From contig CALXAV010000002.1 of the NCBI GenBank assembly GCA_944386385.1, positions 65,366 to 129,365 on the forward strand: a stretch of DNA of 64,000 nucleotides, read 5' to 3'. This stretch comes from an uncultured Clostridia bacterium. GTDB taxonomy: Bacteria; Bacillota; Clostridia; TANB77; CAG-508. Shown one piece after another: positions 632 to 15,322 of this stretch. Within the stretch, counting starts at the first letter, position 1, and the number at the start of each line of letters is the position of its first letter. The notes below the pieces were generated by a model that saw nothing but the letters and a program-made list of their open reading frames with translations, had not been told where the DNA came from and ran no database searches. The position numbers and the translations under genes are program-made.

Positions 632-1322
632 TAAAATATTTAACATGATGACTATTATTTGAAATTGTTTGGGAATCAAATTCAAGGTGTAAAATTTTAT
701 AGCCATGTTTTAAATCATCAGTATAATACTTAAAAACTATATTAGTTGCATCATCTGGCAATTTATCTGGAAAAGAAGAAACTTCTTCTTTTGCAAAGTA
801 ATGAGTTTTTACAAATTCATATCTATTAATATTAGTTACTTCACAACTGTTTACTGCGAAAGATGCTATAATTAAAAATACAAACTGTATAATAAATATA
901 GGTAAAAGGAAACTAAAAAAGTTAACTATAATATCACTCAAAAATTTTCTATTCATCTTAATTTTTTTAGAAAATGAGAAATGACTGAAAATTATTATAA
1001 GCATAAACAGTAAAAATATTATACTAATATTGTAATGATTACTAATTAATAAGTAGTATAATATTTCATAAGTTTCAAGAGCAAAAAAGCAAACAATACT
1101 ACATAATAAAAATTTATAATTTATAGTTACTTTAGTAGACTCTTTTTTCTTTTTAAACAAATAAAGTAAAATATATAAAAAAAATGGTATAAGTAATATC
1201 AACAGAAAGACCACGGATTCATTTATAGTATGTAATAAAAATTCTCGAACAATGAAATACATATCTATATAAAAGAGAATTAGAAATGTTGTATAGGAAA
1301 ATGCAGTTTTTAAATTATTCAT
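615..1322 (-). CDS. polytopic membrane protein, unknown function
   Basis: Several hydrophobic segments; GGAGG 8 nt before ATG at 1322 (track start 1337 is a TTG too close to the SD). Confidence 0.55.
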   Translation of the reverse strand: MNNLKTAFSYTTFLILFYIDMYFIVREFLLHTINESVVFLLILLIPFFLYILLYLFKKKKESTKVTINYKFLLCSIVCFFALETYEILYYLLISNHYNISIIFLLFMLIIIFSHFSFSKKIKMNRKFLSDIIVNFFSFLLPIFIIQFVFLIIASFAVNSCEVTNINRYEFVKTHYFAKEEVSSFPDKLPDDATNIVFKYYTDDLKHGYKILHLEFDSQTISNNSHHVKYFIQVEM

Positions 1323-1413
1323 ATCTTTTTCCTCCAAACAATATTTTATATTAATATACCATTAAAATACTTAATTGTAAATATCAACATTTAATAACAA
1401 GGAGGTTGGATAT

Positions 1414-2085
1414 ATGAAAAAAAGAGTAATTATAATAAGTATAATTATGATAATAATTATTACTATAGCTATTGTTTTAATTTTTTCTAAAAGCTCAAAT
1501 AATAAAGAAAATATAAATTCAGTAGAGAAAAGTCAACCACAAGCTACAAGTGATTCAACGCAATTAGCACTAGAAGATACAGATATGGAAATGAGACAAA
1601 AAGAACTAGATGAGAAAATAAAAACGATTTTGTATGGAATATTAAACATTACAGGTGAAGTTGAAGAAGAATATAATGAAGCAAATGTAAATAAAGTAGT
1701 TGACGAATTAACTATTAAAAATGGAATATATATTTCGGAAAAGGGAAGAGAAAAAATATTAAATTTAATAAACAATACAACAAACTGTAAATATGAAGTT
1801 GATGATGAAGGATATTTAATTAACACTACAGGTAAATCTACAAACGAAATATCTCAAAAGATAGATGAATTAATATCTGGAAATAAATGTATCATACTTG
1901 ATTATAATATATATTATTATTGCATATTAGGAAACGATATTTGTACTTTTAATATCGAACCAACAGAATATATGGAAAAATTCGAAGGAAACAATATTAT
2001 TCTTATGGTACTAAATCCAAATAAATATGAACAAGAGTATGAATCAGCCGCCGATTTAATAAATCAAATTATAAATAATGCTTAA
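1414..2085 (+). CDS. N-terminally anchored exported protein, unknown function
   Basis: AGGAGG RBS; single N-terminal TM segment (IIISIIMIIIITIAIVLIF). Confidence 0.55.
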   Translation: MKKRVIIISIIMIIIITIAIVLIFSKSSNNKENINSVEKSQPQATSDSTQLALEDTDMEMRQKELDEKIKTILYGILNITGEVEEEYNEANVNKVVDELTIKNGIYISEKGREKILNLINNTTNCKYEVDDEGYLINTTGKSTNEISQKIDELISGNKCIILDYNIYYYCILGNDICTFNIEPTEYMEKFEGNNIILMVLNPNKYEQEYESAADLINQIINNA

Positions 2086-2105
2086 TAAATAGAAAAGAGG
2101 AAGAA

Positions 2106-2405
2106 ATGCAAAAAATTACTAAAACTGAGTTAGAAATTTTAAAAGTATTATGGGACAAACCGCTTTCTATAAAAGAATTAGCAAGTAAATTAAATAAAAA
2201 TTTCAACACTGTTAAAACCTTAGTTTATAGGCTAATAAATAAAAATATTATAATTGCAAAAAAAGAAGAAAAAGGCTGCGTCTATATATGTAATATTAGT
2301 AAAGATAAGTTTGTCAAACAAGCGACAAAAACTTTTCTGGAATTTTTCTATGATAATGATGCTAAAAGATTAATAGAAGATATAAAAGAATTAAAAAGAC
2401 TATAA
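2106..2405 (+). CDS. BlaI/MecI/CopY-type winged-helix repressor (short)
   Basis: 'TELEILKVLWDKPLSIKELASKL...TVKTLVYRLINKNII' matches the penicillinase-repressor N-domain pattern; hairpin terminator after stop. Confidence 0.6.
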   Translation: MQKITKTELEILKVLWDKPLSIKELASKLNKNFNTVKTLVYRLINKNIIIAKKEEKGCVYICNISKDKFVKQATKTFLEFFYDNDAKRLIEDIKELKRL

Positions 2406-2542
2406 CTATTTATAGTCTTTTTTATAATAAAAATAAATAAAAAAATTTTTAAAAATAGGTGTAACTTTTAACAATATTCGATGTAATATTATTGTAAAAA
2501 AACTTAGGATAAACTAAAATATAATTATAAGAAGGAGAAGAA

Positions 2543-3088
2543 ATGGAAGGGAAAACAGATAAAGAATTATATTTGGATTTTTTGAATGGAAATAATGAAG
2601 CTTTTGATGAAATAATGAAGAGATATAAAGATAAATTAATAAATTTCATCAAAAGATACGTAAAGAGTTTTGAAGTAGCAGAAGATTTGTCTCAGGACAC
2701 TTTTGTATATGTTTTGATAAATAGAAAAGAATATGATTTCAATTATAATTTAAAAACTTATTTATATCTTATTGCTAAATGTAGAGCATTAAATTACTTA
2801 AATAGACAAAAGAAAATTGTAAAGTTTGATGAGAACTATGTTAAAACGCAAGAAAGCACCGAAATGGTAGAAGATAATTTGATAAGAGAAGAAAATAGGG
2901 AAGAGGTAAGGATGGCATTTAATAAATTAAAACCCGAATACCAGTCCGCGCTTTTATTAAGAGATATTGAAAAATTTAATTATAAAGAAATATGTAAAAT
3001 TCTGAATAAAAATTTATCACAAGTAAAAATCTTAATATACAGAGCAAGAAAATCATTAGAAAAAAAATTAAAGGAGGAAAGAAGATGA
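2543..3088 (+). CDS. ECF-type RNA polymerase sigma-70 factor
   Basis: Region 2 ('DLSQDTFVYVL') and region 4 HTH ('YKEICKILNKNLSQVKILIYRARKSL'); ATGA overlap with next gene. Confidence 0.85.
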   Translation: MEGKTDKELYLDFLNGNNEAFDEIMKRYKDKLINFIKRYVKSFEVAEDLSQDTFVYVLINRKEYDFNYNLKTYLYLIAKCRALNYLNRQKKIVKFDENYVKTQESTEMVEDNLIREENREEVRMAFNKLKPEYQSALLLRDIEKFNYKEICKILNKNLSQVKILIYRARKSLEKKLKEERR

Positions 3089-4116
3089 TAAATAAAGAAT
3101 ATTATGATAAAGTATGGAAAAAATATCAAGTTATGAAAAATCCCAATAAGAGAGACTCTTTCTATAATGGACATTATTATACCTCTAACAAAATAAATAA
3201 TAATAATATTTATAAGATGGTGGCAATGTTTATAGCCGTTATTATAGGAACTGCTGGACTGGTTTATGGTGCAGGTGCATTGTACCAATATATATTACAA
3301 GAAACCTCAAATGCAAATCCTTCTTTTATTAATGTAGATAGCAATTCAGAGGGATATGAAAAATTGGGATTTAAACTTATAACAGATTTGCATGATTTTT
3401 ATTATAAGAAAATCATAAACTATGAAGATTATACAGAATGTAAAAGATATATAAATTCATTATTAGAAATGACAGAAGATGATTTCAAAGAAAATTTTTT
3501 AATTGTTGTAATATCCGCAAATTCAAATACAGGAGGATTGCATATTTCAAATATAGAATCAGACAACTCAACTCTATATATTGAAGTAGATAAAAGTGAA
3601 GAAGAAAACGCCGGAAAAGGTATGGTATCTGCTAAAGTAGATAAAAATTTAAATAGAGATAATATTAAATTAACAGAAAAAAAAGAAGAAACATATTCAA
3701 TAAATTATACACCAATTAAAGAATTACCAAAGGATTATACATTAGAAGAAGCCGTAAATGATAACTGTTTTGTTATAGATAAAGATGGAGAAGTAATATC
3801 AAATAATAAAGAAAGAATTACAGATTTTATTAATAATACTCAAAATGGAAATGATGATTTTATACGAATAGTAAGTACAAATGGGGTAAGTAAAGAAACT
3901 GAAGAAAATGCAATAATTATTACAGATATACAATATGACAATGGAAGTTATAAAGTATGCAGAGATCAAAGCAGATGTATATCTTTGGGAAATGACATAG
4001 AATATTATTATAATACGTATTCAAAAATAGAAGATGTAAAAAATGATGCTTTTGCACAAAATTGTGTTAGATTAACTAGTTTATATGATGTATTGGTAGT
4101 CGCTTTTTATAAATAG
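3085..4116 (+). CDS. putative anti-sigma factor, single-pass membrane protein
   Basis: Translationally coupled to the sigma gene; one TM ('MVAMFIAVIIGTAGLVYGAGALY'); large extracytoplasmic domain. Confidence 0.5.
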   Translation: MINKEYYDKVWKKYQVMKNPNKRDSFYNGHYYTSNKINNNNIYKMVAMFIAVIIGTAGLVYGAGALYQYILQETSNANPSFINVDSNSEGYEKLGFKLITDLHDFYYKKIINYEDYTECKRYINSLLEMTEDDFKENFLIVVISANSNTGGLHISNIESDNSTLYIEVDKSEEENAGKGMVSAKVDKNLNRDNIKLTEKKEETYSINYTPIKELPKDYTLEEAVNDNCFVIDKDGEVISNNKERITDFINNTQNGNDDFIRIVSTNGVSKETEENAIIITDIQYDNGSYKVCRDQSRCISLGNDIEYYYNTYSKIEDVKNDAFAQNCVRLTSLYDVLVVAFYK

Positions 4117-4321
4117 ATAGTTAAACACTTATAATAGGTTTTATAACAAAGTAGTATAATTATTTTTAAATTTATATTACTTTGTTTTTTAAAAAATTAT
4201 GTAACCTTTCTATCTTTTGTATCTTTTTAACAATTTTTGGTAAAAATAGTGTATAAATATAATGAAGCACAAAAGTGCCTCAAATTTTGGTGTCTAAACC
4301 CAAATGGGTTTTGACATAACT

Positions 4322-4338
4322 AAAGTCATTTCTTGGCA
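4322..4338. repeat. left arm of 17-bp perfect inverted repeat bracketing the GC-rich gene
   Basis: AAAGTCATTTCTTGGCA; exact reverse complement at 5404-5420. Confidence 0.95.
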
Positions 4339-4365
4339 GAAAACACGAGAGAGAAAGGAACTATC

Positions 4366-5376
4366 ATGACTAACGTGTCAAGACGTGGTTTTTTGGCAGG
4401 TATGGGGTTGGTGACGAGTGGCTTGCTTTCTATGGCAATGCCAACTGAACAAGCTTTTGCTGCTACAACTCCAATTACTGCATGGTCTGATCATTCTCAG
4501 ACCGTTTACTCTGGACCTTCATATTCCTATGTTTCAGTAGGAAGTATTGGAAATGAAACTGTATATGTCATGGGTACAGAGCAAGGTTGGTATAAAATCA
4601 TCTACAATGTCGGAAATGGGGCAACCCAAAAATCCGGATATGTTCCGATCAGTGAGCTGAGGAACGTAAGTGGTGGAACTCCACAGGAAGATGATTTTTG
4701 GGGCGGAATTGTAATTTCTGCGACCAACCAGACAGTGTATAGTTGTGATGACTATGCAAAAAAGGTAAACATTGGCTCTGTTTCCGCTATGGAGGGCATC
4801 ACTAAGCTGTATGGCTATAATGCTTCTTCGTCGGGCGGTGGCTCGTATCCAGTTGCATTTGTTGAATACTCAACTAGTAGTGGCCCCAAGAGAGGATATA
4901 TCTTTAATCCTAACTTCATCTATGTAGGCAACACTTGTGTTGCTAGAGTGACGCAAGGAACAAATGTTTCCTACGGTTATCATTCAGGATTTAATTTCCT
5001 CAATGCGGGATCGGTAAGTGCCGGTGAATATGTTGCTGTAATTGCTACATCTGACAGCAAGAATCTGGCATATATCGAATACAATACAAATAACAAGAGG
5101 AAGCGTGGATACGTTTCTAAGAGTTGCCTGAGAATGTATCATGAGGACAACTTGCCGAATTTGTATGGTTTCGGTATTAATCCGTATGGAATCACTATGG
5201 GAGGCAATAGTGATGTTTATGCAGGCCCATCAAAGCAATACAACAAGGTTGGTAGCGTGTATGCCAACGAGGTAGTTGCTTTTGTGGCTGAAGTTCCTAT
5301 AAATGGTGTCTATTACAGGTATATTTACTATGATGTAGATGGCACCAACAGCCAGAAGGCTGGTTTCCTGGTTTAA
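4366..5376 (+). CDS. Tat-signal secreted protein with four SH3b-like repeats, GC-rich
   Basis: AAAGGA RBS before ATG 4366; twin-arginine 'SRRGFLAG', 'AFA|A' cleavage-like site; four repeats ending in basic-G-Y/F motifs (KSGYVP, KRGYIF, KRGYVS, KAGFLV); about 47% G+C in an 80-nt hand-counted stretch. Confidence 0.75.
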   Translation: MTNVSRRGFLAGMGLVTSGLLSMAMPTEQAFAATTPITAWSDHSQTVYSGPSYSYVSVGSIGNETVYVMGTEQGWYKIIYNVGNGATQKSGYVPISELRNVSGGTPQEDDFWGGIVISATNQTVYSCDDYAKKVNIGSVSAMEGITKLYGYNASSSGGGSYPVAFVEYSTSSGPKRGYIFNPNFIYVGNTCVARVTQGTNVSYGYHSGFNFLNAGSVSAGEYVAVIATSDSKNLAYIEYNTNNKRKRGYVSKSCLRMYHEDNLPNLYGFGINPYGITMGGNSDVYAGPSKQYNKVGSVYANEVVAFVAEVPINGVYYRYIYYDVDGTNSQKAGFLV

Positions 5377-5403
5377 GGAAAAAAGTCTTAACTAAATAAC
5401 ACT

Positions 5404-5420
5404 TGCCAAGAAATGACTTT
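5404..5420. repeat. right arm of 17-bp perfect inverted repeat
   Basis: TGCCAAGAAATGACTTT = reverse complement of 4322-4338. Confidence 0.95.
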
Positions 5421-5421
5421 G

Positions 5422-5453
5422 CTCGTACCAGTCTTAACTGGTACGAGTTTTTT
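5422..5453 (+). terminator. rho-independent terminator of the GC-rich gene
   Basis: CTCGTACCAG / CTGGTACGAG 10-bp stem, 6-nt loop, T6 tail. Confidence 0.85.
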
Positions 5454-5573
5454 AATAAAGAAAATGATAAACATCTATTTAAAAATAATTAATTAAAAAC
5501 ATATAAATTGAACCACGCTTTACTTTATTAACATAATATGGTATAATAATAAATGTTAGGAGTGAAGCAAATA

Positions 5574-6452
5574 ATGTTAGATATAAATATGAATTTATAC
5601 AAAGTTTTTTATAAAGTAGCTCAATATAAATCTTATTCTGATGCAAGCGATAAAATGATGATTAGCAAGTCAGCAATAAGTAATTATATTAAGAAATTAG
5701 AAGAACAGTTAAATACAAAGCTTTTTTACAGAGAGAACAATGGTGTAAAGCTAACTAAAGAAGGGGAAGAATTATACAAATATGTAGAAAAAAGTATGGA
5801 AATGATTGAAGCTGGTGAAAAGACTTTATTGCAAAAGAATAATTTAGAAACTGGAGAAATTTCTGTTGCAGCTTTATCACATATAGCAGAATTTTATTTA
5901 ATGCCTAGAATTGAAAAGATAAAGAAAAAACATAAAGGCTTAAATATAAAATTAATAACTGCATCTACTGGGGAAGAATTATTAAGACTACTAGAAAATC
6001 ATAAAGTCGATTTTATATTAGACAGTACAAAACTAGATATTAATAATAGTCAAATTGTTAATAAAAAAGTAAAAGATATAGAAAACATTTTTATTGCAAA
6101 AGATCCTATACAAATAAAAAAATTAAAAGATTTGGAGAAGTATGATTTTATATTAGGTTTAGAATATACTTCTACAAGTAAGCGATTAGTAAGAAAATTG
6201 AAAGAAAATGGAGTTCATATAAAGTCTACATTAGAAATAGATATTACAGAGCTAAAGATTAGTGCAGTAAAAAGAGGTCTTGGTATTGGATATGTAATGA
6301 AAGATAGTGTACAACAAGAACTTAATAATAAGGAATTATATGAGGTAAAAGTGCCAATGGAACTATCAAAGTCAACATTGAGACTATCATTTTTAAATGG
6401 TCAATTAGGAAAGTTGGATAAAAAATTTATAAAAGATTATTTGTTAGTCTAA
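5574..6452 (+). CDS. LysR-family transcriptional regulator
   Basis: N-terminal HTH 'YKVAQYKSYSDASDKMMISKSAISNYIKKLEEQLNTKLFYR' plus substrate-binding domain; AGGAGTG before ATG 5574. Confidence 0.85.
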   Translation: MLDINMNLYKVFYKVAQYKSYSDASDKMMISKSAISNYIKKLEEQLNTKLFYRENNGVKLTKEGEELYKYVEKSMEMIEAGEKTLLQKNNLETGEISVAALSHIAEFYLMPRIEKIKKKHKGLNIKLITASTGEELLRLLENHKVDFILDSTKLDINNSQIVNKKVKDIENIFIAKDPIQIKKLKDLEKYDFILGLEYTSTSKRLVRKLKENGVHIKSTLEIDITELKISAVKRGLGIGYVMKDSVQQELNNKELYEVKVPMELSKSTLRLSFLNGQLGKLDKKFIKDYLLV

Positions 6453-6574
6453 ATTGAAAAACAGTCAAATATGGCTGTTTTTTTATGTGAACAGCCGTTG
6501 ATGTTTTGATAATAGACAAATGGTAAAAACTGGTATATAATCAACATACATAATATAGGAAGGATGTTAAAATA

Positions 6575-7759
6575 ATGAAAAAAAGAGAAGTATGTTGGTT
6601 AATTACAACAAGGTGCAATCAAAAATGTGCTTATTGTCATGGATTTAGAAATATTCCAGAATTAAGTCTTGAAGAAAATAAAGAAGTTCTTATGAAATTA
6701 ATAAGAGCAGGTGTAAATTATATAACTTTTTCAGGTGGAGAAGCATTGTTATATCCTAATATCATAGAATTGTTAAAAATAGCAAAACAAAACGGAGTAA
6801 AAAGTAAATTAATAACAAATGGTTCTATAATTGCAAATAGTGAAAAAATGAGAGAAGCAATAAATTATTTAGATACTATAACACTATCATTAGATACAAT
6901 TAATGATGATATAAATGAGCAAATGGGTAGAGGCAGAAATCATTTCGCAGAAATAAAAAAAGTATTAGATATTTTAAGAGATAAAGATATTAGAATAAAA
7001 ATAAATACTGTTGTAACAAAATTAAATATTGATTATATAGAAGAACTTGGAGAATTTTTAAATTCTAATTATAAAATAAATGAATGGAGAATATTTAGAT
7101 TCGCTCCATTAAGAGAATTAGCAAAAGAAAATGAAGAAAAATTTGAAATCACAGATGAACAATTTAAGTCTACTAAAGAAATATTCCAAAAAAATTATAA
7201 AAACATAGGTAAAGTAAATTACAGAGATAATGATGATATGGAAAGCAAATATAATCTTGTTACTGCAAATGGAAATATTGTTAGAACAATAAATAAGAAA
7301 GATATAGTAATAGGAAATGCTTTAAATCAAGGAGTAAATGAAATTGTAAAAATAATGAATGAAGATTATAATAGAAATTATTTAAAAGACAAAATTAAAG
7401 TGATAGTTTCTTATGATAATGATAATATATTAAATAGATTGGTTAATACAATAAATAATATAGATTATGCTGAGGTTGTTGCAACTGCTAAAAATTCTGA
7501 AGAAACATTTAATAAGATAATGGATAAAAGACCAGATATGGTGTTTTCAAAGTTTGACATTAATGTAATAAAAAAATCAGAAGAAAAATTAGAACAAAAT
7601 GCTCCTGTTTTCAATTTAATAGAAAACGATATAGGGTTAAAAGATTTTCAAAATGCAATGAGAGCTAGTGGAAATAAAATTAATGCACTAGTAAGAGAAC
7701 CATTTGAAGAAAGAGTAGAGGGAATATTAAAAGACTATAAAGAGTATATTTATAAATAA
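6575..7759 (+). CDS. radical SAM enzyme (MoaA/viperin-like core) fused to a C-terminal degenerate receiver (REC-like) domain
   Basis: C14-x3-C18-x2-C21 ('RCNQKCAYCHG'), 'FSGGEALL', 'ITNGS', 'GRGRNH', 'KINTVV', 'EWRIFRF'; residues from about 273 ('IKVIVSYDND...EVVATAKNSEE...RPDMVFSKFDI...REPFEE') look CheY/Spo0A-like. Confidence 0.75.
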   Translation: MKKREVCWLITTRCNQKCAYCHGFRNIPELSLEENKEVLMKLIRAGVNYITFSGGEALLYPNIIELLKIAKQNGVKSKLITNGSIIANSEKMREAINYLDTITLSLDTINDDINEQMGRGRNHFAEIKKVLDILRDKDIRIKINTVVTKLNIDYIEELGEFLNSNYKINEWRIFRFAPLRELAKENEEKFEITDEQFKSTKEIFQKNYKNIGKVNYRDNDDMESKYNLVTANGNIVRTINKKDIVIGNALNQGVNEIVKIMNEDYNRNYLKDKIKVIVSYDNDNILNRLVNTINNIDYAEVVATAKNSEETFNKIMDKRPDMVFSKFDINVIKKSEEKLEQNAPVFNLIENDIGLKDFQNAMRASGNKINALVREPFEERVEGILKDYKEYIYK

Positions 7760-7764
7760 AAAAC

Positions 7765-7812
7765 AAGAAATAAGTTTTAGATAAAATCTATTAACTTATT
7801 TCTTATTTTTTT
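7765..7812. terminator. bidirectional terminator shared by convergent rSAM and Spo0A-like genes
   Basis: AAGAAATAAGTT / AACTTATTTCTT 12-bp arms, T-run after; A-run before. Confidence 0.7.
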
Positions 7813-8521
7813 TGTATCTAAGATATGTTACAAAGGTTTTCAAAAACTGTTTTGGAGTAATATTATCCTCATAAATATCAAAGATATTAAGCAGTTTGTT
7901 TTGAGTTTTTATTGAACGGTATGTGTTTAATGGAACTAACGAACTTCTGATTCCAGCTTTTACAGTTTTAGCATCAATATTATATTCTTTTGCTATAAAG
8001 TTATAAATACTATCTAAAGATTTTATAGCAGTACGATTATAATAACAATAAAAAATTGCACTACGCATATAATTAGTACCATTAGAACCTAAATTAAAAT
8101 ATAGCCTAGATAAATATACATTAATTTCATCTATCGTTATATCAGCATATTTACATTTGTTTTTCATATTTGACAGAGCTTGTGAAAGATCTCGCAAATT
8201 TTCAGGTTCTGTCAAAATACTATAAACTTTTTCAACATTTCTTAAATCTAAATTTTTAATATCTTTATTTACAGTTAAAATTGTATTACATTTTGAACTT
8301 TCATCATCTAAATTAGTTATCTTATCAATAATATCCGTATAATTTAGATCACTAAAAAATGTATCCAAAATTAATATATTAGGTCTTAATGAAAAATATT
8401 TATTTAAAGTTGTTATTCCATCATTTGTGCTTATAACTTCAAGGTCTTTGTCTTTTGCAAGGTAATTACAATATTGAGAATTTTGTTTTATATTCTCACT
8501 CGCAACAAGAACTTTTAGCAT
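7796..8521 (-). CDS. orphan Spo0A-like regulator: degenerate receiver plus Spo0A C-terminal DNA-binding domain
   Basis: 'GTNYMRSAIFYCY...IAKEYNIDAKTVKAGIRSSL...ITPKQFLKTFVTYLR' aligns by eye with the Spo0A_C motif series; N-domain 'KVLVASEN...ILILDTFF' lacks the DD acidic pocket. Confidence 0.8.
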   Translation of the reverse strand: MLKVLVASENIKQNSQYCNYLAKDKDLEVISTNDGITTLNKYFSLRPNILILDTFFSDLNYTDIIDKITNLDDESSKCNTILTVNKDIKNLDLRNVEKVYSILTEPENLRDLSQALSNMKNKCKYADITIDEINVYLSRLYFNLGSNGTNYMRSAIFYCYYNRTAIKSLDSIYNFIAKEYNIDAKTVKAGIRSSLVPLNTYRSIKTQNKLLNIFDIYEDNITPKQFLKTFVTYLRYKKNKK

Positions 8522-8564
8522 TTAAAACAACTCCTAATAAACAATTATTTTTAAAATCAAGCAT

Positions 8565-8593
8565 ATTATATCATAAACATTATGTAAATTCAA
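8565..8593 (-). promoter_or_regulatory. sigma-A-type promoter of the Spo0A-like gene
   Basis: Minus strand: TTGAAT, 17 nt, TATAAT, about 45 nt before the start codon. Confidence 0.5.
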
Positions 8594-8657
8594 GACAAAT
8601 ATGGAAAAAAATGGAAAAATATGCAAAAAAGCTTAAATCTACAACACTTTTACACCC
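8566..8657. repeat. 92-bp direct repeat, left copy (flanks IS)
   Basis: Identical by eye to 10748-10839; abuts the left IS inverted repeat. Confidence 0.9.
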
Positions 8658-10747
8658 CCCGAGTTTGCCACTTAATTGAAAAAAATATTTAAGATTTTGC
8701 AAGTAAACACTTGCTTTTTTTGTATTTTATGTATATAATCTTTCTGTCGGTATATAAGTATATGTCATAATACAAAGGAGTAGATATTTATGTATGTAGA
8801 ATCTTTTAAAAATAATGGTATCGATTATCTTCGATTAGTAAAAAGTATTAGAGTATTAAATTCTAAAGGAATTAAAACAGCTCGAAAAAAAGTTGTATAT
8901 AACATTGGTCCTCTTTCTAAATTTGATGATGGCAAACCTGAATATGTTAAACGTTTAAAAAAATCTTTTAAGGCTGGCAAACCGATTATCTCTTCTTTAG
9001 AAAAATTTTGTGATAAAGAAAATCTTCCTGTTGTTCATAGATTTAACATTTTAGAAGGAAGTCCTGATTGTTTTGGAAATCCAAAAATATTTTCTAATAT
9101 TCTCCTTGAAAGAATATTAGAAGAAATTGGCTTAAGAAATTTGTTTTCTTCATATAAAGGATTTACAAAAATAAAATATGATGTTTATGGATTTGCTAAA
9201 CTTTTAATTTTTGGTAGACTATTAAATCCTACGTCTAAATCTTCCACAATAAAACAGAATGATAACTATTATGTTCCAATATTAAATAATTTTAACCCAG
9301 ATAATGTATATGATACTTTAGACTTTATCTTTGAAAATAAAAACAAAATTATTAAAAGAATTAATACTAATCTTGTAAAAAAAGCTAATCGATCACCTAA
9401 AATAATTTATTATGATGTCACTAATTTTTACTTTGAAATTGAAAATCCAGATGAAGATATTTTAGATGAAAATGATAATATAATTAAAAAAGGTATTAGA
9501 AAAAACGGAGTTTGCAAAGAAGAGAGAAAACTTCCAATAGTCCAAATGGGACTATTTATGGATGATAATGGTATACCTATTTCAATTGAGTCTTTTCCTC
9601 GGAAACACATTAGATCACCTCACTCTAAGACCTGCTTTAAAAAATAATATAGACAATTTAGAATTTTCAAAATTTATACTAATTTCAGATAGAGGGATTT
9701 TTCAATATAGAAATTTATTAAATTTATTACAAGACGGAAATGGTTACATAGTAGCAAAAAGTTTATTGAAAAGTTCTCAAGCAGAACGTGACTGGACTTA
9801 TGATGATAATGGCTATACTAAAGTTAATGAGAATTTTAAATATAAATCTAGAATAGTAAAAAGAAGTGTTAAAGATGAGCAAAATGTAAATCATACTATC
9901 GAAGAAAAAGTTGTTGTTTATTGGAGCAAAAAATTTCAAGAAAGGGCAGAAAAAGAAAACAAATCATTTTTAGATTTTATAAAAAAATTACAAAATGCTC
10001 CTGAAAGTTTTAGACTAACAAGTTTACAAAATAAAAGTATACAAAAATTTTTGAAAAAAGAATATATAAATAAAAATACTGGTGAAATATTAAATTCCTC
10101 AGATATAAAGCCAATGTTAGACTTTGATAAAATTAAAGCATATACAAAAAGTTTAGGATATTATCAGATAGTGACTTCTGAATTAAACATGGAAGAAAAT
10201 GAAGTTATCGATAAATACCATGGACTAACGCAAATTGAAGAACAATTTAGAACTATGAAAAGTACTTTAGAAACAAGACCTCTTTACGTACGAACACCAG
10301 AACATATAGAAGCACACCTTCTAATATGCCTTATTGCACTTATTATGCTAAGGATAATACAAAAAAGAATTATCAACTCTAAGCAAATAGAAATTAAGGA
10401 AGATATGTATTGGACAACAGGAATAAATGGAACTAGAATACAAGAAGCACTTAATAAATGGCAAGTTGACTTAATGCCAAATGAATTATATAGATTTATG
10501 AATATGGAAAATGAAGATTTAAAAATAATACTTAATTCATTCAACATAAATATCCCTAAAAAATTATTTACATTAGGAGAATTAAAGAACATAAAAACAA
10601 ATATACAAATTTTCATATAGGTATATAAATGTAGGTATATAAATTTCAAAATTTTAAAACCTTACCTATAGCCTATTATAGCTAATTTATCAATAAAAGC
10701 AGGATATAAAAGTCCTGCTTTTAACCTTTTTAAGTGGCAAACTCGGG
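8658..10747 (+). mobile_element. IS1634-family (IS4 superfamily) insertion sequence
   Basis: Perfect 18-bp terminal IRs CCCGAGTTTGCCACTTAA / TTAAGTGGCAAACTCGGG; transposase with IS1634-like N-terminus 'MYVESFKNNGIDYLRLVKSIR'; long flanking duplication. Confidence 0.85.
8790..10620 (+). pseudogene. IS1634-family transposase, frame broken by one extra base near 9600
   Basis: ORFs 8790-9647 and 9562-10620 join as '...ISIESFP|GNTLDHLTLRP...' if C9600 is removed. Confidence 0.8.
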
Positions 10748-10839
10748 TTATATCATAAACATTATGTAAATTCAAGACAAATATGGAAAAAAATGGAAAA
10801 ATATGCAAAAAAGCTTAAATCTACAACACTTTTACACCC
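10748..10839. repeat. 92-bp direct repeat, right copy
   Basis: Identical by eye to 8566-8657; abuts the right IS inverted repeat. Confidence 0.9.
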
Positions 10840-10866
10840 TTTTTATACTACTTTACACCCTTTTTA
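10831..10866. repeat. two 15-nt direct repeats TTTACACCCTTTTTA, 21-nt period
   Basis: 10831-10845 and 10852-10866; the first copy straddles the end of the 92-bp duplication. Confidence 0.8.
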
Positions 10867-11186
10867 CCAAAAACAAAAAGTAAACAATATAATTCACTTG
10901 ACTATCAAAGTCTAAAGGGTTTGCAAAAGATTTTGAAATACTAAAGAATTATTAGCAAAAGTTTTAGACTTTGATTGTTTTTTGTAAAAAAGTACCCTTA
11001 AAGATTTTGATTAAAAATTCTGAAAAGGGTGTTATTATGAAAAGAAATGAAGGGAATAAGAGAGATTATTTAATTGAAATAAAGGATATTAATAGTTTGT
11101 TATGCCTTTTTAGAAAAGGCAGGTATGCAATAAGAGTTTGCGTATCTGTCTTTTTTTGTAGTCAAAAATTAATAAATTGTCGCAGT

Positions 11187-11227
11187 CCTCCAAAATCAAT
11201 TCGCTCAAAAAACGAATTGATAGGAGG
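11187..11227 (+). promoter_or_regulatory. hairpin sequestering the SD of the 11236 gene
   Basis: CCTCC-aaaa-TCAATTCG ... CGAATTGA-ta-GGAGG; the GGAGG is the RBS of the ATG at 11236. Confidence 0.4.
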
Positions 11228-11235
11228 TAGTTTAA

Positions 11236-11694
11236 ATGAAATATGAAGTAGATTCATATATATTAGAATATAATGAAAAAACAAAACAATATTTTATTTA
11301 TTTTAAAGATAGTGTAAATAATGAATGTAAATTAGAAATAAAAAAGGAAGTATTTGATACATATATGAAATCAAAAAAAGAATACAAAAAGATACAAAAT
11401 CAATATGATAGACATGAAGAGCATTCTGAACAATCAGATATAAGTTTATATAAAAAATCTTATATAAATAAAGTTAGTTTAGAAGATATGGTAATAGAGA
11501 AAATTAATAATAGTGCTTTAAGAAAAATAGTAAAGGAAGTTCCAGAACCACATAATCACCGATTAGAAATGTATTTTTTTGAGGATATGACAATAAAAGA
11601 AATAGCCTCAAAAGAGAACAAAAATGAAAGGACAATCAGATATAGTATTTCTAAAGGAATTAGTGAAATTGCTAAAAAAATTAAAAAAATTTAA
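11236..11694 (+). CDS. sigma-70 region-4-like HTH protein (mobile-element regulator type)
   Basis: C-terminus 'RLEMYFFEDMTIKEIASKENKNERTIRYSISKGISEIAKKI' is a region-4 HTH; strong RBS. Confidence 0.6.
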   Translation: MKYEVDSYILEYNEKTKQYFIYFKDSVNNECKLEIKKEVFDTYMKSKKEYKKIQNQYDRHEEHSEQSDISLYKKSYINKVSLEDMVIEKINNSALRKIVKEVPEPHNHRLEMYFFEDMTIKEIASKENKNERTIRYSISKGISEIAKKIKKI

Positions 11695-12061
11695 AAAATT
11701 TTTCAAAATCATTTCCGAAATAATTAATTAAGTGAGGAAACAAGTGAAGGGAGTAAAATTCTTTCTCTTGTTTCTTTTTATTTGGAAATGAGATGAACTT
11801 TGAAAAGTAAATAACAATTCATTAAATACATTCCCATTATTTTGAGCTAGTTAAAAAGTAAATTTATAACTTACTTTACTTAAATATGAGTATGGCAACT
11901 CATAAGGCGATAATGAATAGTGGGTATAATGATACACTTGTTTAGTCATAGCACGAGCGAGATAAAACCGTCCCACGCATTGAGAACAAGTCTGTTAAAG
12001 CAGATAGGTGAAAGTCCTGTGGAGCATTTGCTAAATGCCGTTTAATGAATTTCTTGGAGAA

Positions 12062-12130: not shown

Positions 12131-12295
12131 ATGAAAATAATGCTTTTTATAATGATCCTTATTGCAATATTTACATACCTTATTATCTTAGGAAGTAGTA
12201 AAAGCAAAACGAAACAAGAAATAGAATATGAAAATAAAGAACAAAGTAATTATTTAAAAAAATGGGAGGAAAAGAGGAAAAATGGAAATAAGTAG
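12131..12295 (+). CDS. 54-aa membrane peptide, overlaps the MazF-like start
   Basis: AAGGAG RBS; 'MKIMLFIMILIAIFTYLIILG' TM then a charged tail; not in track (under 60 aa). Confidence 0.45.
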   Translation: MKIMLFIMILIAIFTYLIILGSSKSKTKQEIEYENKEQSNYLKKWEEKRKNGNK

Positions 12296-12884
12296 AGGAG
12301 ATATATTTTATGCAGTTTTAAATGAAGATGCAGTAGGAAGTGAACAAACAGGAATTAGACCAGTTGTTGTTTTACAAAATAATGTAGGAAATCTTTACAG
12401 TCCAACAGTTATAATTGCACCAATTACGAGCAAAGTAAAGGTAAAATCAAAATTACCGACACATATTTTTATAGATGAAAAAAGTAATGGATTGCCTAAA
12501 AATTCATTAATTTTATTAGAACAAATAAGAGTAATAGATAAATCAAGAATAAGAAATTATATTGGACATATTGAAACTAATGATATGAAAGAAATTGATA
12601 TAGGTATTATTATTGCATTAGGAATAGATTTGAATAAAGCACTTAAAGATGCTAAGTATTTTGGAAAACTAGCTTTAGAAAAAGAAGAAAAAACAGAGTT
12701 TATTACTATAAAACAAGTTTCATCTTATGGAATTGTAGCGAAAGAGTATTTGAAAAGCACTGGAAATTTAGAAATAAGTAATAAATTGTTTGGGGAGTAT
12801 ATACTAACGCTAATGGAATTATATTCACCAGAAGAAATAGAGAAACAAGCAGATAATATAATAAAGAAAGGTAGGAAACTATGA
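12282..12884 (+). CDS. mazF: MazF/EndoA (PemK) family endoribonuclease toxin with about 85-aa C-terminal extension
   Basis: First ~115 aa align closely by eye with B. subtilis EndoA ('RGD..YA.L....GSEQ.G.RPV.V.QN..GN..SPT.I.A.IT......KLPTH..ID......L..SVILLEQIR.IDK.R....IGH'). Confidence 0.85.
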   Translation: MEISRGDIFYAVLNEDAVGSEQTGIRPVVVLQNNVGNLYSPTVIIAPITSKVKVKSKLPTHIFIDEKSNGLPKNSLILLEQIRVIDKSRIRNYIGHIETNDMKEIDIGIIIALGIDLNKALKDAKYFGKLALEKEEKTEFITIKQVSSYGIVAKEYLKSTGNLEISNKLFGEYILTLMELYSPEEIEKQADNIIKKGRKL

Positions 12885-13551: not shown

Positions 13552-15322
13552 ATGAGCGAAAAAATAAAAATAAGAATTGCAATATATTCAAGAAAATCAA
13601 AATATACAGATAAAGGAGATTCAGTAGGAAACCAAATTGAACTTGCAAAGGAATATATAAAAAGAAATTATCCAGAAGATATATATGATGTGGAAATTGT
13701 AATATATGAAGATGAAGGATTTTCAGGAGGAAGTTTAGATAGACCAAGATTTAAAGATTTTTTAGAAGATGAAAGAAAATATCCTTATGATATTCTCATT
13801 TGTTACAGATTAGATAGAATTAGTAGAAATATAGCAGATTTCTCGTCTTTAATGAATGAATTAAATGAATTAAAAACTTCATTTATCTCAATAAAAGAGC
13901 AATTTGATACTAAAACACCAATGGGAAGAGCTATGATGTATATAGCATCTGTATTTGCACAATTAGAAAGAGAAGTAATTGCAGAAAGAATTAGAGATAA
14001 CTTATTTGAACTATCAAAAACAGGTACATGGTTAGGAGGCGAGGCCCCTTTACGGATTTAGTGCAGAAAGATATAAAAAAGTAGAGGTGTGCGAAGAAGA
14101 TAAAGACTGTATATCTAAAAAAAGTAAAGTTGCCTCTAAACTTGTTATAAATGAAGAAGAAGTAAGCAAGGTTAAATTAATATTTACTAAATTTTTAGAA
14201 CTAAAATCAATGTCAAAATTACTGACATATTTAATGAATAACAATATAAGAACAAGAAGGGGTGTATATTTTGGAATATGCTCTATAAGAAAAATGCTTA
14301 CAAATCCAGTATATGCTAAAAACGATAATGATACAATGGAGTATTTTGATTCAAAAGGAATATTTATTTACTGTGAAAATGATGACAGAAAGAATAACAA
14401 TGGCAAATATGGTTTTTTGACATACAACAAAACAAGTGGGTATGGAGGAAAAGAAAAACCCATAGAAGAATGGATAATTGCAGTTGGTCTTCATCCAGGA
14501 ATCATTGATGGGAGAGATTGGGTTGCTGTTCAAATGCTTATTAAAAAAAATGCTGATAAGAAATATAGAGCAGCCATATTGAAAAAGACTAATACTATTG
14601 TAACAGGTTTATTAAGGTGTAAAAGATGTAATTCACTTATGAGAGCAAAAAATATGGGAAAAGCAGATAAAGATGGAAATGCTTATTATAGATATTGCTG
14701 TAACTTAAAAGAAAAATCACGAGGGCATAAGTGTCAATCACTAAATGTTGGAAGTGAAATTGATAACAAGGTTTTTGAAATAATGAAGAATACTTTTGTA
14801 CCTAATTCTGAAATATATAAAGAGCTTCAAAAAATAGCATCAATTAAGAGTAATGATAACTCTAATAGTGAATTGGAGTTCTTACAAAATGCTTATAATA
14901 AAAACAAGGAAGAAATTGACAAATTAGTAGAGAAATTACAGTATATTGACATTGATTTAATAGATATGGTAAATTATAAGTTGAGAGAATTAAAAGAACA
15001 AAAACAAAATTTAGAAACACAAATAGCAAACATAAAAAATAAAACAAAAATTAATAATAATTCTGAAATGCAAACTGCAAAAGGTTTGCTAAAAATTATT
15101 GATAATTCTTTCGACATATTCCATACATTTGATTTAAAAACTAAAAGAGATATTGTAGGCTTATTTATAGAAAAAATCTACGGTGATGGAGAGAACATTG
15201 AAATATATTTTTTGAATAGTCAAATAGGAGAATCTCAAAAAAAGTTTTTCATTCCAACCATTTCATCGAACCTTGAAAATTCTTTTAATGTTGACCTGTC
15301 ATCAGATAGGGTGAGCAAATAG
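13552..15322 (+). pseudogene. large serine recombinase, frame broken in the C-run at 14045-14048
   Basis: Resolvase domain 'IAIYSRKSK...GFSGGSLDRP...YRLDRISRN'; adding one C gives 'GGEAPLYGFS'; recombinase and zinc-ribbon ('CKRCNS...YYRYCC') domains follow. Confidence 0.85.

Follow-up and report, generated by a model that had tools for sequence, protein, structure and literature searches.

Two convergent genes raise the question that we address here: what kind of enzyme carries a receiver-like tail, and is it functionally tied to the Spo0A-like regulator encoded beside it? The genes lie in a 64 kb stretch of DNA, the whole of which is referred to as the window, and all coordinates are window positions (Table 1). 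An earlier note reported them as open reading frames at 6575-7759 and, on the reverse strand, at 7796-8521, and a check of the translations placed both where it had put them.

Table 1. Features of the locus, in order along the window.
Feature	Coordinates	Strand	Basis or remark
LysR-family regulator	5553..6452	+	Pfam HTH_1 60.9 bits, LysR_substrate 72.1 bits
Terminator-like hairpin and T-run after LysR; also a GGCTGTT-N10-AACAGCC dyad of LysR T-N11-A type	6471..6498	+	
Promoter-like site TAGACA-17-TATAAT for the rSAM::REC gene	6513..6541	+	Best match in 3.5 kb region, 11/12
Viperin-fold radical SAM catalytic domain, residues 1-266	6575..7372	+	Pfam, NCBIfam, PADLOC, Foldseek
Pseudo-receiver, residues 272-394, nearest to Spo0A-type receivers	7388..7756	+	AF2 topology, profile matches, hhalign
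Intergenic hairpin, 12-bp perfect inverted repeat between A-run and T-run	7765..7804	.	Fold, conservation
Spo0A paralogue	7796..8521	-	Pfam Spo0A_C, hhalign, AF2 model
Degenerate receiver, residues 1-125 of Spo0A paralogue	8147-8521	-	
Spo0A_C-type DNA-binding domain, residues 126-241 of Spo0A paralogue		-	
Promoter-like site TTGAAT-17-TGnTATAAT for the Spo0A-like gene	8565..8593	-	
IS insertion, transposase in two ORFs	8658..10747	+	DDE_Tnp_1, perfect 18-bp terminal inverted repeats
Putative operator, TTTACACCC occurring twice at a distance of 21 bp (GGGTGTAAA when read on the gene's strand)	10831..10860	-	
Small protein resembling sigma-70 region 4, placed as orf7 is in Tn916	11236..11694	+	Pfam Sigma70_r4_2 25.2 bits
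pemK RNA motif	11926..12022	+	Rfam RF02913, 37.2 bits (gathering score 34.8)
PemK/MazF-like toxin with C-terminal extension, cluster c6	12282..12884	+	
Large serine recombinase, split in two ORFs (13552-14061, 14087-15322)	13552..15322	+	

The translated enzyme (rSAM::REC) carries the radical SAM triad C14-x3-C18-x2-C21. There are only four cysteines in the whole protein, and because C7 is the sole one outside the triad there is no SPASM or twitch cluster, in agreement with the reported absence of SPASM-type C-terminal cysteines. C14/C18/C21 and G54-G55-E56 are invariant across 71 family sequences, and the Pfam PF04055 (Radical_SAM) score of 97.5 bits against a gathering score of 29.5 places the protein in the radical SAM superfamily. 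The best NCBIfam match is viperin_w_prok (149.8 bits, residues 5-266). The prokaryotic viperin (pVip) models of PADLOC, which carry no curated cutoff, match at E 1e-47 to 1e-49 (6.8e-49 for the window enzyme). The top 18 Foldseek matches are viperins or viperin-like enzymes, with mouse viperin at E 1e-15; the match to 5vsl (E 1.3e-15, target-normalised TM 0.82, 279 columns) includes the C-terminal extension of the viperin fold. MoaA was considered as an identity and rejected (75.6 bits against a cutoff of 284; Foldseek E 1e-8 against 1e-15 for viperin). The core had been suggested to be viperin-like, and viperins are indeed its best sequence, profile and structural matches; profile searches did not place the domain in a well-characterised housekeeping family.

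The enzyme has the viperin fold, yet it is not a viperin. It falls below both curated viperin cutoffs, with 149.8 bits against 180 for NF038283 and 70.7 bits against 450 for TIGR04278, and together with 10 diverse relatives it spans 115-151 bits where 180 are required. Its family forms a clade apart from the one that unites mouse, archaeal and bacterial viperins (20-29% versus 32-40% identity). We compared residues between five true viperins and the 71 sequences of the enzyme family. N-x-H before the cluster loop (mouse N77 and H79) is present in 5/5 true viperins; in the family, position 77 is always Cys and position 79 varies. All five viperins also have K/R at mouse positions 120 and 220 and R at 245, where the family varies (N/D/E/Y, N/K/T/A and A/E/K/S, respectively). 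Mouse K120, K220 and R245 are reported to contact the triphosphate in the 6Q2P work. K247 is retained as R/K, and the viperin G-E/Q-N-D (GEND) loop is replaced by PLRExA. The RGG-x-Y-x-W C-terminal tail, found in three of four pVips compared and presumably present in mouse viperin (the aligned construct stops short of it), is absent from the family, in which the domain stops at about residue 265 and is followed by the linker or, in stand-alone forms, by the end of the protein. In the sequence alignment, the C314 position of the base pocket (beta8 loop) is Thr in 70 of 71 family sequences and K319 is variable, unlike the Cys314/Lys319, Arg, Asn or Asp types of known viperin base pockets (Shomar et al., 2023).

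Common to viperins and this enzyme are the scaffold residues CX3CX2C, GGE, N158, S180, D182, GRG, H201, N222, W246, K247 and Y302, on the same radical SAM partial-barrel fold as that of the pVips (NF038283; Bernheim et al., 2021; Shomar et al., 2023). As in pVips, relatives of the enzyme adjoin nucleotide kinases and are carried on mobile or accessory DNA. Unlike pVips, the enzyme is fused to a pseudo-receiver, and PfkB, CYTH, a U32 protein and a methyltransferase are among the partners. In receiver-less relatives, a LysR gene heads an operon that also contains a nucleotide kinase, PfkB, a U32 protein and a methyltransferase, and the nucleotide-enzyme partners of REC-less and split relatives are a thymidylate-kinase-like kinase, PfkB, methyltransferase, U32, NUDIX, MazG, HD nucleotidase and CYTH.

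A bona fide pVip, making ddhNTP chain terminators against phage with the receiver and paralogue as its regulation, would be consistent with the PADLOC matches, with viperins as the best structural and sequence matches, with the retained scaffold (including the Y302 equivalent), with the adjoining nucleotide kinases, and with ToxN, PemK, recombinases and IS elements among neighbouring genes. We nevertheless consider it unlikely. The sub-cutoff scores, the separate clade and the missing N77-x-H79, K/R120, K/R220, GEND loop, beta8 Asn/Cys/Asp and tail argue against it, as does the finding of the enzyme on a single contig among 2.9 million viral ones; evidence related to phage was not found either. 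Because the enzyme fails the curated cutoff and most viperin substrate-site motifs, it cannot be taken for granted that it makes ddhNTPs or serves in antiviral defence. The earlier proposal that a viperin-like core might imply a nucleotide-modifying or defence role is partly supported, in that the core is viperin-like.

The C-terminus, from about residue 273 to 394, had been read as a receiver with an acidic pocket and acceptor that are not cleanly conserved, and both parts of this description agree with our results. In the AlphaFold model (pLDDT 87.9) a disordered linker (266-271) leads into a well-formed (beta-alpha)5 domain, and the family profile matches solved receivers (CheB, VraR, Spo0A) at 4e-7 to 5e-6. 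The window copy, in which seven residues are missing after beta3, matches Pfam Response_reg weakly (E 0.077, 13.6 bits against a gathering score of 30.2); support from the family is much stronger, with PF00072 matches in the precomputed annotations of many relatives. Comparison with the Spo0A receiver by hhalign gave E 7.5e-18, and Spo0A is preferred to other receivers by a modest margin. All of the phosphorylation residues are replaced: the DD pair by Y/H-N/D and the acceptor Asp by K/E/S/N, and the Thr (beta4) and Lys (beta5) are not conserved, the alignment being less certain in these last two strands.

Pseudo-receivers such as KaiA, FrzS and the plant PRRs keep the CheY fold, have lost the phosphorylation residues, and are used for protein-protein contacts. 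The domain studied here resembles them in its fold and its lost residues. It differs in being fused to a radical SAM enzyme, in having a counterpart, also a degenerate receiver, on the transcription factor encoded next to it, and in belonging to a small family: 86 relatives were found among 1.84 billion representatives, with no context other than this module. CheY-like and flavodoxin-like folds are generally similar and radical SAM enzymes need a reductant, and a flavodoxin-like FMN reductase gene lies near one module variant, all of which would suit a built-in, flavodoxin-like electron donor for the [4Fe-4S] cluster in place of a receiver. However, every profile match is to a response-regulator receiver and none to a flavodoxin, relatives match Pfam Response_reg, and by eye the alignment has no FMN-binding loop motif after beta1, making such a donor hardly credible.

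The convergent gene encodes, as previously described, a second degenerate receiver joined to a Spo0A C-terminal DNA-binding domain. Spo0A_C (PF08769) passes its cutoff of 25 bits with 25.7, and a family profile from which genuine Spo0A was excluded aligned with the whole length of Spo0A (hhalign 99.3%, E 1e-20, 229 columns). The receiver fold in the AF2 model (pLDDT 76) matches 1qmp. The protein resembles Spo0A in this full-length domain pair, in the acceptor Asp retained by most members, in the V-R-x-x-x-R-x-A-L of the recognition-helix region, and in the 0A boxes upstream in some lineages. Unlike Spo0A, the paralogue has lost the DD pocket and the Lys (in the window, S-E for DD and Glu for Lys, with the acceptor Asp kept; DD to S/N-E/N across the family), and it scores 28.5 bits against the Spo0A equivalog cutoff of 200 (TIGR02875). 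It also differs in its setting on a mobile element opposite a converging enzyme gene, with upstream repeats that vary by lineage, and in coexisting with a genuine Spo0A, which is encoded in the same genome at locus L038 (L038:10405-11211). A genuine Spo0A was also found in host P0126, and hosts encode sporulation genes as well. No histidine kinase was seen in the module, so that "orphan" is a fair description of the regulator.

Of 80 independent genome loci from low-GC gut Clostridia, about 70 show the order LysR > rSAM::REC < Spo0A-like, a recurrence far beyond chance. The LysR gene, whose true start is probably the Met of MNLYKVF near 5589, is directly 5' of the rSAM gene in 73/81 loci; its Pfam domains bear out the LysR regulator that had been placed upstream. 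A full convergent Spo0A-like gene is present in 60 of 65 loci with a fused REC and in 5 of 7 with REC as a separate gene, and in none of the REC-less architectures examined. The co-conservation of the Spo0A-like gene with rSAM::REC, on which the earlier note had made its proposal depend, thus holds in other genomes. All four domains of the two proteins are under purifying selection (dN/dS 0.08-0.31 for the pseudo-receiver and 0.07-0.37 for the paralogue). At two loci (L001 and L002) rSAM::REC is intact at 97% identity, with LysR and most of the Spo0A-like gene lost, and at two others (L034 and L079) the receiver is present and no Spo0A-like gene is detectable; the enzyme can therefore persist alone. 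Literature searches returned no description of an rSAM::receiver fusion paired with a Spo0A paralogue, and the module is an undescribed arrangement built from known kinds of parts.

The promoter architecture of the rSAM::REC gene is position-fixed over 60 unique loci (TAGACA in 25 of them), and dyads related to the LysR-type dyad of the window lie upstream of this promoter in other loci. Between the convergent genes, the shared terminator proposed earlier corresponds to a hairpin that folds at -16.7 kcal/mol (z -5.4) and is kept in 30/39 unique loci (median z -5.3 over 39). The 3' arm extends into the final codons of the Spo0A-like gene, and the hairpin is a probable bidirectional terminator for both genes.

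The promoter of the Spo0A-like gene is strongly conserved among loci (TTCCATTTT..GTTTACATAAT-N7-TGnTATAAT). In the window the control region of this gene is split by an IS, absent at loci L003 and L004, with a flanking 92-bp direct repeat (8566-8657 = 10748-10839). A third copy of the TTTACACCC unit, at 8649-8657, is a duplicate generated by the IS; no further exact copies occur in the 64 kb window, and the unit is absent from the enzyme's promoter. At other loci we identified equivalent lineage-specific tandem repeats, with 0A boxes in some, upstream of the Spo0A-like gene only (16 observed against 2.8 expected). Literal 0A boxes are found there in 10 of 53 lineages, and in most lineages the repeats are of other kinds. 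The putative operator repeats face the sigma-like, PemK and recombinase genes and not the enzyme's promoter; the regulator may therefore serve mainly the element.

These 0A boxes, the genuine Spo0A and sporulation genes of the hosts, and the fact that both receiver-like domains are most similar to genuine Spo0A would fit an interference with host sporulation. The pseudo-receiver, the paralogue, or both would then act as phosphorelay decoy or 0A-box competitor against the genuine Spo0A pathway, tying the behaviour of the element, or the enzyme, to the sporulation decision. Such a role is very unlikely, given that in most lineages the repeats are not 0A boxes, that Spo0A is only modestly preferred to other receivers, and that there is no contextual link to phosphorelay genes.

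By analogy of gene order, the module is the predicted cargo and regulatory end of a serine-recombinase element, laid out like tetM-orf9-orf7 of Tn916. Gene clusters c7/c13/c14 come after the Spo0A-like gene in most loci. A relative of the cluster c6 toxin (L016:7964-8602) matches PemK_toxin at 1.6e-28, and the recombinase cluster (c4) has Resolvase, Recombinase and Zn_ribbon_recom domains. Housekeeping genes lie downstream of the split recombinase. DUF87 (VirB4-like ATPase), CHAP hydrolase and sortase genes are present upstream in L106/L107, and the island of one relative interrupts a Zip gene. Conjugation genes were not identified inside the 64 kb window, nor was the left end of the element. 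As in Tn916/Tn5397, a cargo gene is followed by a convergent DNA-binding regulator, a sigma-like gene, small genes and a recombinase, the likeness being one of gene order; large serine recombinases at the element end are shared with both Tn916/Tn5397 and Tn6105 types. A mobilisable C. difficile transposon, Tn6105, likewise combines an orphan response regulator with a sigma factor and two serine recombinases (PMC3158075). The module departs from Tn916 in having a Spo0A paralogue as regulator where Tn916 has the small HTH protein Orf9, and as cargo an enzyme that carries a matching pseudo-receiver; the window recombinase is split, and excision and transfer of the element are putative. The earlier note did not recognise this module as cargo of a mobile element with a serine recombinase.

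Our tentative reading, which we rate as somewhat short of an even chance, is a conserved accessory module in which the pseudo-receiver physically links a LysR-controlled, viperin-fold enzyme to the Spo0A-paralogue switch of the element. LysR would control the rSAM::REC gene from its dedicated sigma-A-type promoter. With a viperin fold and catalytic scaffold and a remodelled substrate site, the enzyme would most likely produce a modified nucleoside or nucleotide and not the classic ddhNTP. The Spo0A-like, non-phosphorylatable receiver, fused to the enzyme or in older variants encoded after it, may pair with the degenerate receiver of the paralogue, and the amount or state of the enzyme would thereby set regulator activity. 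As a DNA-binding regulator, the paralogue would most likely bind the lineage-specific tandem repeats upstream of its own promoter, and would control itself and the divergent sigma-like/PemK/recombinase genes, as orf9 does orf7 in Tn916 (PMC7288454). Read-through over the weak shared hairpin could add an antisense link. Direct contact between the two receivers is plausible from their phyletic coupling. A separate-gene stage followed by fusion (a Rosetta-stone pattern) suggests a functional link.

The same arrangement might instead consist of independent neighbours, with the paralogue as the element's switch regulator (the orf9 analogue), the enzyme as unrelated cargo, and their co-occurrence reflecting one element lineage; the receiver-like domain would then serve the enzyme alone, e.g., in oligomerisation, allostery or reductase docking. 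This would account for operator-like repeats that face the element's genes and are absent from the enzyme's promoter, for the enzyme's own LysR regulator and promoter, for the survival of rSAM::REC without the regulator at L001, L002, L034 and L079, and for C. difficile transposons that have an orphan response regulator, sigma factor and serine recombinases with no mention of such an enzyme (PMC3158075). Against it, the pseudo-receiver occurs in this module only and, save in a few loci, adjoins the paralogue (fused to the enzyme or as the last gene before the paralogue), and REC-less relatives on other serine-recombinase islands are without the paralogue. Both domains resemble the Spo0A receiver and are missing phosphorylation residues, and separate genes preceded the fusion. 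We consider independence somewhat unlikely. Counting against the linked module are that co-occurrence could reflect a shared element backbone, that the operator unit is missing at the enzyme's promoter, and that the two pseudo-receivers are not each other's nearest match, each being nearer to the genuine Spo0A receiver. In a more far-reaching form of the linked module, the two Spo0A-derived pseudo-receivers would constitute a phosphorylation-independent switch by which an enzyme of novel nucleoside or nucleotide radical chemistry gates excision, toxin or transfer genes, with possible 0A-box cross-talk with the host's sporulation master regulator; we regard this as quite unlikely.

Permissive pVip profiles (PADLOC E 1e-49) would label this gene an antiviral viperin. 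The curated cutoff, phylogeny and active-site residues instead identify, on sequence grounds, a sister clade to viperins with a different predicted substrate site. Members of this clade, which are not viperins, are found widely on mobile elements of uncultured gut Clostridia (259 matches in GTDB species representatives). Censuses of defence systems should therefore treat the clade with caution; at the same time, partners such as PfkB, CYTH, a methyltransferase and a U32 protein make it a lead to new nucleotide chemistry of radical SAM enzymes. The repeat arrays vary by lineage and in some cases are canonical 0A boxes; they form a natural series for the diversification of Spo0A-type DNA recognition on mobile elements. 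The non-phosphorylatable receiver that neighbours a Spo0A paralogue, initially encoded by its own gene and later joined to the enzyme, is a clear Rosetta-stone case, and it makes testable the idea that pseudo-receiver pairing links an enzyme to a transcription factor. The module may link a nucleotide-modifying enzyme to the genetic switch of the element; if so, pseudo-receiver heterodimers that couple enzyme to regulator would represent a new signalling logic, together with a new branch of viperin chemistry.

Features of the window and of related loci (locus prefixes mark coordinates outside the window)
Feature	Position	Strand	Remarks
ECF sigma/anti-sigma pair	2543-4116
SH3_3-domain gene	4333-5376
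LysR gene	5553-6452	+	299 aa; standard LysR regulator
rSAM::REC (enzyme)	6575-7759	+	394 aa
Spo0A-like gene	7796-8521	-	241 aa
92-bp direct duplication	8566-8657; 10748-10839
IS element	8658-10747		perfect 18-bp terminal inverted repeats
IS transposase ORFs	8790-9647; 9562-10620		overlapping
Sigma-70 region-4-like gene	11236-11694
pemK RNA motif	11926-12022		Rfam RF02913, 37.2 bits (gathering score 34.8); upstream of PemK-like gene
PemK-like gene	12282-12884		C-terminal extension of ~90 aa
Large serine recombinase, split	13552-14061; 14087-15322		169-aa resolvase part; 411-aa recombinase part
Fic/DOC-family gene	15375-15989
TnpB/OrfB-like ORF	29895-31148		417 aa
Turnover sites	L001:62-1449; L002:4420-5820; L001:2853-3494
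CYTH-like protein, examples	L071:4382-4972; L005:3717-4871
Canonical single-domain receivers	L004:4467-4958; L016:2664-3140; L036:3734-4219; L108:8430-8897		upstream of LysR

The genes for the radical SAM (rSAM) enzyme, its convergent Spo0A-like neighbour and a LysR regulator lie where the earlier note had placed them, in a window of ~25% G+C. The enzyme carries the C14-x3-C18-x2-C21 triad and no SPASM-type cysteines, as the note had read it; C7 is the only cysteine beyond the triad, and thus there is neither a SPASM nor a twitch cluster. Pfam Radical_SAM matches with 97.5 bits. Among NCBIfam models the best is viperin_w_prok (residues 5-266, 149.8 bits against a cutoff of 180), well ahead of StsB (92), mycofactocin maturase (80) and MoaA (76). 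PADLOC models for prokaryotic viperins (pVips) also match (E 6.8e-49), and by sequence the closest solved structures are viperins and fungal viperin-like enzymes. An AlphaFold model from a 71-sequence input (pLDDT 87.9) has two domains and a disordered linker (266-271). Foldseek matched this model to mouse viperin (5vsl, E 1.3e-15, TM 0.82); the top 18 matches are all viperins or viperin-like, followed by SkfB (1e-11) and MoaA (1e-8). Homologues are either 390-416 aa long with a receiver or 256 aa without one, and dN/dS of the catalytic domain is 0.06-0.30.

The MoaA/viperin-type core proposed earlier therefore stands as a viperin fold, but not as a viperin active site. NF038283 scores are 115-151 bits across the window protein and ten diverse relatives, below the 180-bit cutoff in every case. 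Mouse, archaeal and bacterial viperins (32-40% mutual identity) group together in a distance tree, apart from the enzyme family, which forms its own clade with only 20-29% identity to any viperin; the pVips compared were four RefSeq-annotated proteins from plasmids, two with the classic adjacent deoxynucleoside kinase. Active-site positions were mapped onto five true viperins by sequence alignment rather than structural superposition, in mouse viperin numbering validated on C84/C88/C91 and Y302. The family shares with viperins the cluster triad, GGE, N158, S180, D182, G193-R194-G195, H201, N222, W246 and K247 (as R/K), and 62 of 71 sequences keep Y302. However, N77-x-H79, conserved in the five viperins, is replaced by an invariant Cys at 77 with no His. 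Positions 120 and 220 (K/R in true viperins) and the conserved R245 are all variable in the family; K120, K220 and R245 are reportedly triphosphate contacts (6Q2P work), and it is their conservation that was measured here. The loop after beta6 is P-L-R-E-x-A rather than G-E/Q-N-D, and the RGG-x-Y-x-W C-terminal tail of true viperins is missing. The position of C314 in the base pocket is Thr in 70/71 family sequences, whereas the residue types described there in viperins are Cys, Asn or Asp (Shomar et al., 2023).

The family is thus a sister clade of viperins with a substrate site that, by alignment, has been rebuilt, and ddhNTP synthesis, the pVip reaction, cannot be assumed. A true pVip defence system, which the fold and the PADLOC matches might suggest, is improbable given that the enzyme scores below the viperin cutoff, falls outside the viperin clade and differs in substrate-site motifs. 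The family was absent from the phage and plasmid collections searched, where plasmids yielded genuine pVips only; viral contigs contained one true member, identical to the module of loci L049/L050, with nothing phage-specific. The fourth cysteine, C7 (window 6593-6595), is invariant in 71/71 members at the position of viperin's conserved Asn77, and could be catalytic, e.g., as H-atom donor, or structural.

Gene context points to the kind of substrate. Stand-alone relatives (~54% identity) occur in LysR-headed operons. In L099-L101 (positions 1144-12042 of those loci) the genes are NUDIX, LysR, a kinase of thymidylate-kinase-like type, a 700-aa Peptidase_U32, a methyltransferase, the rSAM enzyme, PfkB and then a serine recombinase. 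This ~10-kb block interrupts a ZIP-transporter gene, and its terminal recombinase is split. LysR-headed operons of this kind also occur in L096-L098. A second variant adds a HAD phosphatase, metallo-beta-lactamase-fold and DAHP-synthase-like proteins, a second rSAM enzyme and more methyltransferases; the partners of a Fusobacterium copy are only a methyltransferase and a kinase. These receiver-less operons may encode an undescribed pathway of nucleoside or nucleotide modification. Upstream of an abundant split variant lie genes for MazG, an HD nucleotidase and an FMN reductase of flavodoxin-like type. Directly upstream of LysR, 57/81 loci encode a CYTH-like (triphosphate-tunnel) protein of ~195 aa, in the L005 group fused or adjacent to a ToxN/AbiQ toxin; this gene was not found at the window locus. 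The CYTH identity of this protein cluster (c3) is at profile level only (2een, 2e-7): three members match Pfam CYTH, and a single member compared with Pfam gave no match. Eukaryotic viperins have been reported fused to a "triphosphatase or cyclase" domain (Shomar et al., 2023). Given the company of kinases, PfkB, methyltransferases, CYTH and MazG, the substrate is probably a nucleoside or nucleotide handled in a multi-step modification pathway, of which the window version is the most reduced form.

Residues ~273-394 had been read as a degenerate receiver, and the domain is indeed a real but dead one. Pfam Response_reg is sub-threshold in the window copy (residues 281-326, E 0.077); many relatives at 45-48% identity have a precomputed match, and among solved structures the family profile hits the receivers of CheB (4e-7), VraR (4e-6) and Spo0A (5e-6). 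The modelled domain is a textbook (beta-alpha)5 sandwich. In alignments Y/H-N/D stands in place of the acidic pair after beta1, and K, E, S or N in place of the acceptor; the Thr and Lys are also lost, and seven residues are missing after beta3 in the window copy. A flavodoxin reading was rejected, as every profile match is to receivers. In Foldseek searches with whole models the larger domain filled the match lists, and neither this receiver nor the Spo0A_C domain was matched separately by structure. Among PDB sequences the profile (residues 273-392) best matches 9xzo ("De novo protein M1X0B", E 4.7e-11), a designed protein that outscores every natural receiver.

The pseudo-receiver is not decaying, since its dN/dS (0.08-0.31, seven pairs) is close to that of the catalytic domain. 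Searched exhaustively with HMMER, 1.84 billion representative proteins include just 86 relatives (E <= 1e-3), comprising rSAM fusions, fragments and ~30 proteins of 126-139 aa that stand alone; divergence has thus taken the domain beyond the reach of the ordinary receiver superfamily. Aligned with the Spo0A receiver (hhalign) it gives E 7.5e-18 at 30% identity, and in control comparisons Spo0A-type receivers lead the other types by 2-4 orders of magnitude. With NCBIfam models, Spo0A comes top for the window copy and is on a par with NarL, CheB and BtsR types for relatives. The pseudo-receiver is therefore closest to Spo0A-type receivers, with modest support for a specifically Spo0A-derived origin.

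The neighbour is, as described earlier, a degenerate receiver joined to a Spo0A C-terminal domain. Spo0A_C scores 25.7 bits (cutoff 25), and the N-terminal half weakly matches the NCBIfam Spo0A equivalog model. Aligned by hhalign, a profile of 32 family members, excluding genuine Spo0A, matches a set of 80 genuine Spo0A proteins (99.3% probability, E 1e-20, 229 columns) across receiver, linker and DNA-binding domain. The DD pair has become S/N-E/N, most members retain the acceptor Asp, and the Lys is frequently lost (Glu in the window copy). In the AlphaFold model (pLDDT 76) the receiver matches the Spo0A receiver 1qmp (TM 0.78) and the C-domain is helical and confident. Its receiver has a dN/dS of 0.09-0.37, and its C-domain one of 0.07-0.34. 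A search from a single Spo0A-like protein gave at least four close matches, and at least one genome (that of L038) encodes both genuine Spo0A and the paralogue.

Scanning one genome per GTDB species gave 259 enzyme relatives. All 80 retained loci belong to uncultured low-GC Clostridia living in the guts of humans, mice, rabbits and ruminants, and several genomes carry two diverged copies. The pairing proposed for the window is widespread by HMM counts. Among fused-receiver loci with enough flank (n=65), the convergent Spo0A-like gene is full length in 60, shortened in 4 and missing in 1; for separate receivers (n=7) the counts are 5, 1 and 1. The LysR gene noted upstream of the enzyme is immediately upstream of the rSAM gene in 73/81 loci. 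These associations extend to identities as low as ~40% (enzyme), ~30% (paralogue) and ~36% (LysR). Pfam gave no match for a convergent 257-aa ORF in L034, and no Spo0A-like gene was found near the receiver-less relatives (L051, L095-L101). Split variants have the order rSAM, PfkB kinase, receiver (~130 aa) and convergent Spo0A-like gene, and others have an rSAM-PfkB fusion with a separate receiver gene; the receiver thus always adjoins the paralogue and became fused to the enzyme only later. Conservation extends to the hairpin common to the two convergent genes (window 7765-7804), in structure and not in sequence (median z -5.3; z < -2 in 30/39 unique loci). Just upstream of LysR, several lineages encode a canonical single-domain receiver whose DD and acceptor Asp are intact and which could be a phosphorylatable partner of both pseudo-receivers. 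The literature searched contained nothing on a viperin with a receiver, on a radical SAM enzyme alongside a Spo0A-like protein, or on a viperin-like enzyme in methyltransferase/kinase clusters; as the earlier note supposed for the rSAM::receiver fusion and its Spo0A paralogue, a viperin-type enzyme with either partner is previously undescribed there.

The Spo0A-like promoter is strongly conserved across loci (TTCCATTTT..GTTTACATAAT-N7-TGnTATAAT). Direct repeats spaced by 10-11 bp or 21 bp lie upstream, with a lineage-specific unit that is the canonical 0A box (TGTCGAA/TTCGACA) in 10/53 unique sequences. Matches to the 0A core number 16 here, against 2.8 +/- 1.5 in shuffles; in the same comparison neither the enzyme gene nor LysR had an upstream excess. 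Tandem 0A boxes lie ~100-170 nt upstream of the start in L035, L044-L046, L049, L050, L036, L037, L071 and L075, and at the same position other lineages have units such as AAAGGGCGAAAAAAGGCTA, CGGCGA/TGGCTA and GTGCGTAAAA with a 10-11-bp period. From sequence, these look like putative operators diversifying together with the regulator. The window unit, GGGTGTAAA, has no further exact copies in the 64 kb and was not found at the enzyme promoter. That promoter (TAGACA-17-TATAAT), the best-matching site in the region, keeps a fixed position from locus to locus and has AT-rich T-N11-A-type dyads upstream; a terminator-like hairpin lies 3' of LysR.

The module lies on a mobile element. Past the trio of LysR, enzyme and Spo0A-like genes, the conserved order is a sigma-70 region-4-like gene, a PemK or small HTH gene and one or two large serine recombinases, with unrelated housekeeping genes beyond. 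The window recombinase is possibly inactive, because it is split. A Fic/DOC-family gene follows it directly, then PHP, purC and a tRNA synthetase. On the upstream side, L106/L107 encode a DUF87 (VirB4-like) ATPase, a sortase, a CHAP hydrolase and an ECF sigma/anti-sigma pair also present in the window. By DNA comparison, the block common to the window, L003 and L004 begins 35 bp upstream of LysR (~5518), right after the SH3_3-domain gene in its 34% G+C stretch (4001-6000; ~24% either side), which suggests a recombination junction there. Farther along is an ORF that by eye resembles an IS605-family TnpB/OrfB RNA-guided nuclease, with a CxxC..CxxC zinc ribbon near its C-terminus.

Turnover is evident at these loci. 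The IS element separates the repeat unit nearest the promoter from the second one. The perfect 92-bp duplication on its two sides is unusually long and includes the Spo0A-like core promoter, thereby duplicated, and one operator-like unit; the IS transposase is in two overlapping ORFs (frameshift or decay). In L001 and L002, where the enzyme gene is 97% identical to the window copy, a group II intron replaces LysR and a deletion joins the last 75 Spo0A-like codons to the middle of PemK, so that only rSAM::REC is still intact.

The layout parallels that of Tn916, with cargo tet(M), convergent regulator orf9 and sigma-like orf7, in which tet(M) read-through provides antisense RNA to orf9, de-repressing orf7 and leading to excision (PMC7288454). 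Tn6105 of C. difficile has two large serine recombinases, a sigma factor and an orphan response regulator (PMC3158075). As the main alternative, somewhat less likely than the model favored below, the genes could be independent neighbours, with the regulator an element backbone gene and the receiver serving the enzyme alone. The description of the module is secure, unlike its mechanism. Tentatively, we favor an enzyme controlled by LysR and tied by its pseudo-receiver to the Spo0A paralogue, with antisense read-through perhaps an additional tie between the two genes. The paralogue, which looks like the switch of the element, would act from the repeat array on the sigma-like, PemK and recombinase genes.
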